Below, piece after piece: positions 1 to 2,654 of a DNA stretch of 5,521 nucleotides (positions within the stretch are counted from its first letter, which is position 1; every line of letters begins with the position of its first letter). Origin of the DNA: a virus (lineage: Duplodnaviria > Heunggongvirae > Uroviricota > Caudoviricetes); the IMG/VR virus record IMGVR_UViG_2695420569_000017; one strand, given 5' to 3'. Made by a program: the position numbers and the translations under genes. The notes beneath the pieces were generated by a model. The model saw only the letters and a list, made by a program, of their open reading frames with translations. It was not told the origin of the DNA and searched no databases.

Positions 1-1631
1 ATCCGGTCCGGCGCGGGGTGTGCGGTGATGTCCACACTCACCGGCTTACCGCTGCCGTTAATCAGGTTCACCGCCGATGTACCTGTCTCCGGCAGGGTAA
101 CCTCACGGTCCAGCGTCAGGGTGCGGGTGGCAGCATCAATGGACAGGACACGTCCGCCGGTCAGGGTCCCGGCATAGTCATTATCACAGATTTCAATAAT
201 GTCACCGGGTGTGTGCCGCAGCCCCTGAGACCCGAGCGTGAAATCCACCGTCTGCGTTTCCAGCAGTTCGGTCTTTATCACCCACAGTCCGGCACGGTGG
301 GCCTGACCGCGGCTGGTACAGCCGAACGCGTCCATCTTCAGCAGGTTGCGTCCGTAGCGCAGTATGGCTTCCGGGTCTTCCACCAGTTCCGTGGAGGTCT
401 GCCAGCCGTTCTGCGGGTCGGTGTAATTCACCTCCACCGCCGTGTGCCGGTCCTTCAGGGCACTGAAGCTGTAGCGGAACCCCACGCCGTTATCATCCAC
501 CACCACATCGCTGTTGGTGTACGGCCACACCACATCCGACAGGCGGTCCTGAACAAACGTCAGCATCTGGCCGTTCCATACCGGCATACAGCGCATCGCC
601 GAGCAGAAATCACTGAGAACATCCCACGCCTTACGCTGTTGTGCCAGGTACGCATTGAAGGTCATCCGCGGCTCGGTGCCCCCGAAGCCATCCGGCACCA
701 TCTGGTCGCAGTACTGCCCGATGGCATACAGCGCCCACTTGTCCACATCCGCCGCCCCCAGACGTTTTCCCATGCCGTAGCGCGGGTGAGTCAGCATGTC
801 CCACAGACACCAGGCCGGATTGTTGCTGTATGCCGGTTTCAGGCTGCCGTCCCAGATACCACTGTACGTGCGTTTTTCCGGGTCATAGTTTGACGGCACC
901 TGGATGATGCGACCGCGGATATGGTAGTTCACCGTCATCTGCTGACCACCAAACTGCTCCGCATCCACCTGCAGCCCCACAATCGCCGTGTTCGGGTAGC
1001 ACTGTTTCACATCGATGATTTCGGTGTATGACGACCAGAGCGTCTTATTCTGCAGCTGGTCTGTGGTGCTGTCCGCCGTCTCCCTGACCATCCGGATGTT
1101 AAAGGGCCGGGGCGGCAGATTCTCCAGAATCACCGACGCCAGGAACTGCGAGGTGGTCTTGCCGTTAATGGTGACATCCTTTTCCGTCATCCATTTACCA
1201 CCACGCTCAAGCTGAATCAGCAGGCGGACAGACGTCGGGTTACGGTCACCCTTTGAGGTGGTCTCCACCAGTGACTGCACCCCGAAGGTAACCCGCAGGC
1301 GGTCAATGTTCGCGGACGTAATGGTGCGCGTCACCGGCTTTGCCTTCGTCACTTCCACGCCCAGTCCGGTTTCAGCTCCGGAGGACTCAAAGCCTTCCGG
1401 TGGTGTCTGCTCCTGCTCCCCGGCACGCCAGACCGCAGTCATACCGTGTATCACGGGATTACCGTCCGTGCCCGTCAGCGGGGTTTTGTTCACCAGAATA
1501 CTCTGCAGGCCTTTCACCGGGCCTTCTATCGGTCCCTCACCAATCGCATCAATCACGCTCATCATCTGCGTGGATTTGAGATTATCCTTCGCCTCACGAG
1601 GCGTGTGTGCCTTACCGCCACCTTTTCCCAT
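1..1631 (-). CDS. J: Tail tip / host-specificity protein J (central tail fibre), N-terminal ~543 codons; 3' end lies beyond the window start
   Basis: Reverse-complement translation from ATG at 1631..1629 gives MGKGGGKAHTPREAKDNLKSTQMMSVIDAIGEGPIEGPVKGLQSILVNKTPLTGTDG..., which matches the N-terminus of lambda gpJ as I recall it. I hand-checked codons around 1551-1568 (QMMSVI). The frame stays open to position 1, which is why the ORF track (stop-terminated ORFs only) does not list it. Gene order after I is as in lambda. Confidence 0.9.
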   Translation of the reverse strand, partial: MGKGGGKAHTPREAKDNLKSTQMMSVIDAIGEGPIEGPVKGLQSILVNKTPLTGTDGNPVIHGMTAVWRAGEQEQTPPEGFESSGAETGLGVEVTKAKPVTRTITSANIDRLRVTFGVQSLVETTSKGDRNPTSVRLLIQLERGGKWMTEKDVTINGKTTSQFLASVILENLPPRPFNIRMVRETADSTTDQLQNKTLWSSYTEIIDVKQCYPNTAIVGLQVDAEQFGGQQMTVNYHIRGRIIQVPSNYDPEKRTYSGIWDGSLKPAYSNNPAWCLWDMLTHPRYGMGKRLGAADVDKWALYAIGQYCDQMVPDGFGGTEPRMTFNAYLAQQRKAWDVLSDFCSAMRCMPVWNGQMLTFVQDRLSDVVWPYTNSDVVVDDNGVGFRYSFSALKDRHTAVEVNYTDPQNGWQTSTELVEDPEAILRYGRNLLKMDAFGCTSRGQAHRAGLWVIKTELLETQTVDFTLGSQGLRHTPGDIIEICDNDYAGTLTGGRVLSIDAATRTLTLDREVTLPETGTSAVNLINGSGKPVSVDITAHPAPDR

Positions 1632-1737
1632 ACAGCCTTCCCCTGAATAAATTAACCGCCACTTGCCATTCCGTACAGAAGTCGGATATCCTTCGCCCGA
1701 AAAGCATGAAACACATTTCTGCCATGCTAAAGAGAAC

Positions 1738-1770
1738 CCCCGGTATCAGCAGATACCGGGGTTTTCTTTC
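1738..1770 (+). terminator. Rho-independent terminator: 10-bp GC-rich perfect stem, 4-nt loop, T-rich tail
   Basis: CCCCGGTATC (1738-1747), loop AGCA (1748-1751), GATACCGGGG (1752-1761), then TTTTCTTTC (1762-1770) on the plus strand. The minus strand has an A-rich leader and only a weak T-rich trailer, so the main activity is expected on the plus strand. Confidence 0.7.
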
Positions 1771-1836
1771 ATGCCCACCGATAATCCTGTTGGTTAAAAC
1801 CGGTAATGGCATAAAAATTCTGAATATCTTCACATT

Positions 1837-1864
1837 TTCACACACTGACTGTGGCGCTTATAAT
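1837..1864 (+). promoter_or_regulatory. Sigma70-like promoter: -35 TTCACA, 16-nt spacer, consensus -10 TATAAT
   Basis: TTCACA at 1837-1842 and perfect TATAAT at 1859-1864, with an A/T-rich upstream stretch (1811-1836, ATAAAAATTCTGAATATCTT). Predicted transcription start is near 1871. The orientation is opposite to the tail operon. Confidence 0.5.
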
Positions 1865-1870
1865 TTCGCT

Positions 1871-1968
1871 GCGTTAGTGTTTTTTTGCCCGAGTAACAAA
1901 AACAACTCCTTAACATTGATCTTCATTTGTCTGTCCCCGCAGCTCCGCGATCACTGCGGGATTTTTTT
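1871..1968 (+). ncRNA. Putative prophage-encoded small RNA (~100 nt) running from the predicted promoter to an intrinsic terminator; identity unknown
   Basis: The promoter at 1837-1864 is followed about 70 nt later by a terminator hairpin and T7 tail (1935-1968). The interval has no start codon with a ribosome-binding site and no ORF. It contains an internal T7 run (1880-1886) and a CA-rich stretch AACAAAAACAAC (1895-1906), an architecture typical of Hfq-dependent sRNAs. Boundaries are predicted, not measured. Confidence 0.45.
1935..1968 (+). terminator. Rho-independent terminator: GC-rich stem followed by a T7 tract
   Basis: CCCGCAG (1936-1942) pairs with CTGCGGG (1954-1960) around an 11-nt loop, followed by A then TTTTTTT (1962-1968) on the plus strand. 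The minus strand has no T-tract after the stem, so read-through from I to J on the minus strand is not blocked. Confidence 0.65.
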
Positions 1969-1973
1969 ATGTT

Positions 1974-2654
1974 TTATCCCTGTCGCCCGACAACCACGAC
2001 CGTTCCGCCCCCGCCTTCATCACGGGTGCTGATGTCCTGGGATATACGGCGGGAGCCAACCAGCATTTCCCCGTAAGGCACCGGCATCGGGTTCCCCTGG
2101 GCAATCATGTTATCCAGCGAGGAAAAGTACGTGTTCTGTCTGCCGTTATCCGTTGCGCGGTAATCCGGTGTTTTTGCCTTCGGGGCCAGCATCTGGGCCA
2201 CTCCGCCCAGAATCATGCTGGCTCCAAGTGAAAACAGCATCGTGGTGGCAGAAAAACCACCGGCTGCCAGGGCTGAACCCCATAACGCCATTGATGCCCC
2301 GGCAGTGAAGAAAGAGCCCACGATGGCTGCCGCCCCCAGCACAATCTGCAGTCCACCCTTTCCGGCCCCGGCCAGTCGCGGCACAATGTGGATGACCGTT
2401 CCCTCACCCAGCTGTTCGTGAAGACGGGCGTACACCGCCTCCGGTGCCGTGTCATCACCGGCAATACGTATCTGGTACCAGCCTTCGTTCATCTGACGGC
2501 GGAATCCGGGCACCTGTAACGACAGCGCCCGGATGGCTTCCGCTGCCGTGTTCACATACAGGCTGAGGCGGCTGCCAAATCGTTGTAAATCCCCGTGAAG
2601 GCAGATGCGGACCAGTGGCGGTGACGCCAGACAGAATGCGTTCGTCGTTGCCAT
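1974..2654 (-). CDS. I: Tail tip assembly protein I (226 aa)
   Basis: ORF-track protein MATTNAFCLASPPLVRICLHGDLQRFG...QNTYFSSLDNMIAQGN...GEMLVGSR closely resembles lambda gpI as I recall it (about 223 aa), including a glycine/alanine-rich hydrophobic core. ATG at 2654 is preceded by the SD-like GAGAGG. The start sits inside the 3' end of K, as in lambda. Confidence 0.9.
   Translation of the reverse strand: MATTNAFCLASPPLVRICLHGDLQRFGSRLSLYVNTAAEAIRALSLQVPGFRRQMNEGWYQIRIAGDDTAPEAVYARLHEQLGEGTVIHIVPRLAGAGKGGLQIVLGAAAIVGSFFTAGASMALWGSALAAGGFSATTMLFSLGASMILGGVAQMLAPKAKTPDYRATDNGRQNTYFSSLDNMIAQGNPMPVPYGEMLVGSRRISQDISTRDEGGGGTVVVVGRQG

Follow-up and report, generated by a model that had tools for sequence, protein, structure and literature searches.

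A pasB allele and a putative bidirectional terminator module share the I-J spacer of a lambdoid tail operon

PasB is an Hfq-dependent small RNA (sRNA) that was found by RIL-seq in 2021 in EPEC (PMC8550237). Its gene lies in prophage PP6 of EPEC O127:H6 E2348/69 (NC_011601.1, 1466343..1466261, minus strand, 83 nt; Northern probe AATCCCGCAGTGATCGCGGAGCT; Pearl Mizrahi et al. 2021, PMC8550237, Table S6). In uninduced EPEC, a discrete PasB transcript of about 83 nt is seen on Northern blots (PMC8550237). The RNA ends in a U-tract of 7, has a higher level in the nonactivating condition, and shows log2 fold changes of -6.8 (activating condition) and -2.4 (nonactivating condition), which we took as delta-hfq versus wild type (PMC8550237, Table S2). 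It had 37 RIL-seq interactions and was RNA2 in at least 98.7% of its chimeras (PMC8550237). The discoverers found no common target motif for PasB, which has no entry in their motif table (PMC8550237), so the PasB seed is a predicted one. A later distribution survey counted 1,158 PasB hits, described PasB as embedded in an operon of phage structural genes, and placed its seed directly upstream of the terminator (Zhu, Shabalina and Storz 2026, bioRxiv 10.64898/2026.05.13.724894).

Three more Hfq-bound sRNAs, EcOnc22, EcOnc23, and EcOnc24, come from the EHEC Sakai prophages Sp15, Sp14, and Sp11, respectively (Tree et al. 2014, PMC4104026, Table S2); on Northern blots they appear as a band of about 85 nt, and they are destabilised without hfq (PMC4104026). 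AgvB and AsxR of EHEC prophages resemble PasB in being short Hfq-bound prophage sRNAs, encoded by promoter-RNA-terminator units at insertion-tolerant sites, and in forming a family in which the 3' part is conserved, the 5' part varies, and ARN motifs occur. Unlike PasB, they are located close to stx and lysis genes, downstream of PR', measure 51 to 60 nt, and share no sequence similarity with it. We know of no sponge activity of PasB. A further point of comparison is the lambdoid moron (lom and bor of lambda; prophage sodC). Morons are reportedly recognised, following Juhala et al. (2000), as extra DNA between adjacent genes that has its own promoter and terminator, a deviant composition, and expression from the repressed prophage.

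We analysed a 5,521-nt stretch of viral DNA (IMG/VR record IMGVR_UViG_2695420569_000017), here called the window. It is filled by a lambdoid tail operon on the minus strand in the order H, M, L, K, I, J (open reading frame [ORF] list, Pfam, and RefSeq), running from the end of the tape-measure gene through M, L, K, and I to the first 543 codons of J. A RefSeq-annotated E. coli O157 region is 100% identical over 401 bp around the I-J spacer (window 1600-2000), and its gene order agrees. The J start codon is the ATG at 1631-1629, preceded by the Shine-Dalgarno sequence GGGGAAGG at 1643-1636; the RefSeq start of I is at 2555. The I stop codon ends at 1974, so with the J start at 1631 the spacer covers 1632-1973, or 342 bp. 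The features discussed below are as follows.

1..1631, minus strand: J, tail-tip/host-specificity gene, 5' part (Pfam FNIII-A_GpJ, 8e-41, and Phage-tail_3, 4e-38; RefSeq gpJ in the region identical over window 1600-2000)
1632..1810, no strand assigned: J-proximal module, 179 bp (E2348/69 homology begins only at 1811; E2348/69 and Sakai Sp15 have unrelated sequence at this place)
1663..1692, plus strand: hypothetical weak promoter-like site, TTGCCA-18-TATCCT (scan, 9/12 only)
1729..1769, no strand assigned: bidirectional intrinsic terminator, with A-tract 1729-1737, stem 1738-1747/1752-1761, loop AGCA, and T-tract 1762-1769 (terminator scan of both strands; inverted repeats I1 and I2)
1811..1973, plus strand: pasB module, comprising upstream block, promoter, sRNA, and terminator (98.8% identity to E2348/69 PP6 over 163 bp; PasB-family profile match at 1806-1968, E = 4e-45)
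1817..1836, plus strand: family-conserved upstream block TTCTGAATATCTTCACATTT, which includes the palindrome TGAAnnnnTTCA and directly precedes the -35 element (57 unique family units)
1837..1864, plus strand: pasB promoter, with -35 TTCACA 1837-1842, a 16-nt spacer, and -10 TATAAT 1859-1864 (sigma-70 scan, 11/12)
1886..1968, plus strand: PasB sRNA in its published 83-nt boundaries (alignment to E2348/69 PasB; Northern probe match)
1936..1968, plus strand: pasB terminator, with stem CCCGCAG/CTGCGGG 1936-1942/1954-1960 and U7 1962-1968 (terminator scan, fold)
1974..2654, minus strand: I, tail assembly gene (Pfam Lambda_tail_I, 5.8e-15; RefSeq annotation)

Window positions 1886-1968 match PasB of E2348/69 at 82 of 83 nt, the sole mismatch being A1913 in place of C. 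The promoter and the terminator are identical between the two loci in the alignment, and the scan found the same promoter site in both. The complement of the published Northern probe has a single, mismatch-free site in the window, at 1941-1963. The genomic setting is also shared: in E2348/69, gpJ and the tail assembly gene flank PasB and are both encoded on the opposite strand, and the two loci differ in the one single-nucleotide polymorphism and in the J-side flank. Its sequence, its antisense I-J position, and its own promoter motif and Rho-independent terminator motif with a long U-tract thus identify the plus-strand unit of the spacer, at the level of sequence, as pasB, an already-known gene. 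Expression, Hfq dependence, and RNA partners are published for the near-identical EPEC E2348/69 allele. The A1913 allele is probably the commoner one (863 records match the window module at 99% identity or more), and it may correspond to PasB-2 of Zhu et al. (2026). The pasB module of Sakai Sp12 is 100% identical to that of the window. The Hfq-CRAC orphan peaks of Tree et al. (2014) include none listed for the identical Sp12 I-J spacer, its pasB module included (PMC4104026); pasB of the Sp12 type may be weakly expressed under virulence-inducing conditions.

The preliminary description of this DNA had given an I-J spacing of about 60 bp for lambda and read the gap of roughly 340 bp as an AT-rich, moron-like insert with RNA cargo, antisense to the tail operon and active in the lysogen. 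It had listed a complete promoter-terminator unit on the opposite strand, a second strong terminator, and no plausible coding capacity. The lambda spacing is indeed 60 bp (I ends at 15444 and J starts at 15505; the lambda locus was fetched separately), and GC content is 0.39 to 0.48 within the spacer versus 0.55 to 0.65 in the flanks. Apart from TTCACA-16-TATAAT, no strong sigma-70 match occurs in the 5.5-kb window; this site is followed on the same strand by the terminator at 1936-1968, and the second hairpin, at 1738-1761, was likewise recovered. Like the lambdoid morons, the window therefore has added DNA at a junction whose two genes are neighbours in lambda (342 versus 60 bp, with most close relatives already at about 240 bp), promoter and terminator motifs of its own, and a deviant GC content; the near-identical allele gives a Northern signal in uninduced EPEC (PMC8550237). 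Morons carry protein cargo, whereas the cargo of this unit is a regulatory RNA. Because the unit is the known pasB gene, the RNA moron reading was right, yet already published.

Other known RNAs did not account for the unit. An Rfam 15 scan of the window at E values of up to 1 gave only a chance snoRNA match inside J, so that the scan proposed in the preliminary description returned no sRNA family for the spacer, and ARAGORN found no tRNA or tmRNA genes in the window. AgvB, first suggested by a CA-rich tract, was rejected: AgvB lies 3' of PR', whereas the window unit is in the tail operon, it needs CACAACA, and the AgvB and AsxR models (RF02702 and RF02703) have no window match at E values of up to 1. 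HnrS (EcOnc10-12), a 66-nt multicopy late-region sRNA with a CUUCU seed, was rejected as well, as its Sp12 copy lies between Rz-like (lysis) and terminase genes and not between I and J. A full-text literature search for the hairpin and PasB core sequences found no paper.

To describe the family, we surveyed 80 IMG/VR loci with a J N-terminus at least 92% identical to that of the window (individual loci carry L numbers below); 57 unique PasB-family units from these related loci were kept after filtering. The sequence GCGTTA, 7 nt downstream of the -10 element, is kept across the aligned units; from it we predict that transcription starts at G1871, which gives a primary transcript of 98 nt (1871-1968). 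The published 5' end, U1886, was taken from read coverage and is 15 nt downstream of the predicted start; processing in the U-run, or coverage that is imprecise, may explain this gap. The upstream block TTCTGAATATCTTCACATTT recurs at each unit of tandem PasB-like arrays, and together with TGAAnnnnTTCA it may be a regulator site or an UP-like element. Within the RNA, an A-rich (AAN)4 tract, AAC-AAA-AAC-AAC (1895-1906), is followed by the conserved single-stranded core UUGAUCUUCAU (1916-1926) upstream of the terminator stem. In an alignment of 27 distinct family variants (RNAalifold), the terminator stem was the only conserved structure, with one compensatory G-C to A-U change, and the best-conserved unpaired block was GUUAAUCUUC(A/G)U, upstream of the stem, of which UUGAUCUUCAU is the window form. 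The fold of PasB RNA is of ordinary stability (z = -0.9). The layout, as read from these motifs, is that of an Hfq-dependent trans-acting sRNA with a predicted seed and predicted Hfq contacts.

The explanation we favour, and consider very probable as a whole, combines the pasB transcription unit, a trans-acting RNA, and a terminator or insulator function of the J-proximal module. The pasB module (1811-1973) would be a self-contained unit, transcribed convergently with the late tail operon. Its TTCACA/TATAAT promoter would be where the host RNA polymerase starts in a lysogen, producing an RNA of about 83 to 98 nt that ends at the CCCGCAG/CTGCGGG hairpin and U7, 5 nt before the I stop codon. Hfq would stabilise the RNA, with the U-tail and the AAC-AAA-AAC-AAC tract as putative contacts, and PasB would pair in trans with host and island mRNAs, most likely via the unstructured core UUGAUCUUCAU just upstream of the terminator. 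The J-proximal module may, in the lysogen, halt unmodified polymerase on the tail strand before J and, in the other direction, halt antisense transcripts leaving J before they reach the pasB promoter; in lytic growth, Q-modified polymerase would presumably read through it.

PasB could instead act mainly in cis. The RNA is fully complementary to the I-J part of the late mRNA; on this view it, or the convergent transcription as such, would lower J expression or set its timing, or would steer how the tail transcript is processed, and contacts in trans would be secondary. We regard this as quite unlikely. PasB-family units in the related prophages examined do keep the I-J place and the antisense orientation and are always paired with a tail-strand hairpin upstream of J, as a role in cis would have it. 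Against it, PasB RNA overlaps neither the J ribosome-binding site nor either coding sequence, and arrays of two to four units with different bodies, together with the 37 trans partners from RIL-seq, fit a trans-acting regulator. The I-J position by itself reflects an insertion-tolerant junction, because sodC occupies the same site in other prophages, in the same orientation, as a parallel to the window unit.

Three Sakai loci that correspond to EcOnc22-24 (L088, at 1337-1427, from Sp15; L089, from Sp14; and L090, from Sp11) carry, like the window, a unit in the I-J spacer on the strand antisense to the tail operon. They share with window PasB the upstream block, the GCGTTA start, a UUAAUCUUCAU core, and the CCCGCAG/CTGCGGG terminator; they differ in having only about 74% identity to the window module and a different 5' body. 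EcOnc22-24 appear to be PasB-family members, on a coordinate mapping that assumes a genome-version offset of about +132 to +149 deduced from HnrS; once shifted by this amount, the published peaks land on the PasB-like units. The HnrS gene probably lies at 2372-2437 of L086 (Sakai Sp12). This stretch, roughly 66 nt long, has a CUUCU motif as well as a U7 terminator and sits between DNase-like and endopeptidase genes, and its position implies that the coordinates of Tree et al. are shifted by about 132 to 149 bp relative to NC_002695.2. The EPEC paper (PMC8550237) and the 2026 preprint (Zhu et al.) make no link between EcOnc22-24 and PasB.

The spacer was first described as a single insert of about 340 bp. 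It does hold extra DNA relative to lambda; its parts, on these alignments, are two independent modules, pasB (1811-1973) and the terminator module (1632-1810). The 179-bp module pairs with different pasB variants (L012 and L084), and it showed no homology to the PasB-unit profile (nhmmer --max with E values of up to 100 found only 1806-1968), which rules out a decayed PasB unit. Its main feature is the hairpin at 1738-1761, with 10 bp, 7 of them GC, which scores as a terminator on both strands and is stronger than the pasB terminator; the segment 1699-1770 has a minimum free energy of -31.9 kcal/mol (z = -7.0). In E2348/69, the J-side flank is about 78 bp with a tail-strand terminator, versus 179 bp with a bidirectional terminator in the window. 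A tail-strand terminator between the pasB promoter and J is present in both E2348/69 and the Sp15-type locus L054, at a position that matches the window hairpin. We take the module to act chiefly as a terminator or insulator, the insulator role being conjectural.

Lambda itself has a CCGCC-n4-GGCGG hairpin with A and T runs beside it in its 60-bp spacer (L005, about 955-990), where PasB loci have the tail-strand terminator; this hairpin failed the terminator scan. At the foot of the terminator stem, the window has a C at 1737 where most copies of the module have an A, and other variants carry small indels in the A-tract (1728-1738). A search for the exact hairpin in one genome per species gave no match, which is uninformative because the query bears this rare extra C.

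An alternative reading of the J-proximal module is that it encodes a second, unrelated plus-strand sRNA of about 70 nt (about 1699-1769), transcribed from TTGCCA-18-TATCCT to the strong hairpin, so that the spacer would hold two tandem sRNA genes. The layout (a promoter-like site, then two hairpins, then a U-tract), the near invariance of the module in 1,446 genomes, and the occurrence of tandem sRNA units in related I-J spacers speak for it. We consider it unlikely: the promoter match is weak, and the window holds no more such matches than shuffled sequence (3 versus a mean of 1.8). The candidate has no homology to PasB units and no Rfam match, the same Sakai Sp12 spacer lacks a listed Hfq peak, and the symmetry of A-tract and T-tract gives the hairpin the look of a plain bidirectional terminator. 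Covariation offers no test here, because all copies of the module are near-identical.

We also weighed a protein-coding role, in the form of a 77-aa or 66-aa minus-strand ORF (1612-1845) or a 44-aa plus-strand ORF, and find it very improbable. The minus-strand ORF is annotated as hypothetical in one GenBank record (phage ASU11), and RefSeq has nothing annotated at its position in the 1,446 genomes. Neither the 44-aa nor the 77-aa ORF matches a Pfam or PHROG family, the ATG at 1812 lacks a preceding Shine-Dalgarno sequence as read from the DNA, and the minus-strand ORF crosses the hairpin of the terminator and extends over the J start in a different frame. The earlier statement that the spacer lacks plausible coding capacity agrees with these results.

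With pasB and a terminator module as its preferred content, the window spacer can be placed among those of its relatives, with gap sizes taken from the loci where they were measurable. Most measured I-J gaps were 234 to 260 bp with one PasB-like unit each. The window type has gaps of 341 to 343 bp, also seen in Sakai Sp12. Gaps of 421 to 425, 715, and 907 to 929 bp hold two, three, and four tandem PasB-like units, respectively, and a gap of 851 bp holds a Cu/Zn superoxide dismutase gene (sodC). In tandem units, conserved promoter blocks recur about every 220 bp (222/232/218 bp), and the RNA bodies and some terminators differ. Tandem PasB-like arrays are not mentioned in the 2026 Pas sRNA survey (Zhu et al. 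2026). In the arrays of L046 (424-bp gap), L065 (715 bp), and L054 (910 bp; locus 1091-2000), all units are antisense to the tail operon. The sodC loci (L009, L019, L021-L024, and others; Pfam Sod_Cu, 3.9e-32) have the gene likewise antisense to the tail operon, and after it comes the 3' half of a PasB-like unit. In one viral contig (L085; gap, window orientation, about 110-246), an insertion opening with a transposase-like frame, MTKNTRFSPEVRQRAVRMVLESQGEYD, interrupts the pasB promoter.

Since a PasB-bearing spacer of about 240 bp is common in this E. coli phage lineage, the 60 bp of lambda is the exception among the loci surveyed, and the part that distinguishes the window from its relatives is the 179-bp J-proximal module. 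The preliminary description had named an ancestral spacer of about 340 bp lacking promoter activity as a finding that would speak against an insert. The usual state in the lineage is a spacer of about 240 bp with PasB. It had also looked to an alignment of the junction with lambda and related prophages for the insert boundaries and flanking direct repeats. The alignment gave a module boundary at 1811, and there were no target-site duplications at the module borders, where we saw only short repeats at about chance level. An AT-rich 8-nt inverted pair lies at 1810 and 1964. An exact 11-nt repeat, TATCCTTCGCC, occurs at 1583-1593 and 1687-1697, that is, in the start of J and in the left module, and an 8-nt repeat, ACCGCCAC, occurs at 1614-1621 and 1655-1662 in an order swapped relative to the TATCCTTCGCC copies. 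Both repeats may be recombination traces or chance.

A broader proposal is that the I-J junction is a dedicated site for regulatory-RNA cassettes. PasB-family genes would duplicate there into as many as four units and exchange their target-recognition parts, and the 179-bp module would be one more cassette, coding for a second sRNA (about 70 nt) unrelated to PasB or acting as a regulatory terminator that governs J expression. We offer this tentatively, as a possibility rather than as the expected outcome.

Among 5,426 complete E. coli genomes, 1,813 carry the PasB-family module, in up to 11 places per genome and never annotated, and 1,446 (27%) carry the 179-bp module, every copy with at least 95% identity and no annotated feature. 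RefSeq and GenBank annotation and Rfam 15 contain no pasB entry. In one genome per species, the PasB-family pattern was found only in E. albertii and in a few short contigs that are probably contaminants.

The pasB finding itself is already known, and what we add are modest extensions and not a new kind of system. The gene is expressed (in the published EPEC allele) and connects the prophage to host gene regulation. Its absence from annotation in spite of its presence in a large set of genomes is a practical point, and assigning EcOnc22-24 to the PasB family would bring two literatures together. Insertions recur at the I-J junction, which holds sRNA units (one alone or several in tandem), sodC, or the terminator module, and its variants form a natural series for the diversification of sRNA seeds.
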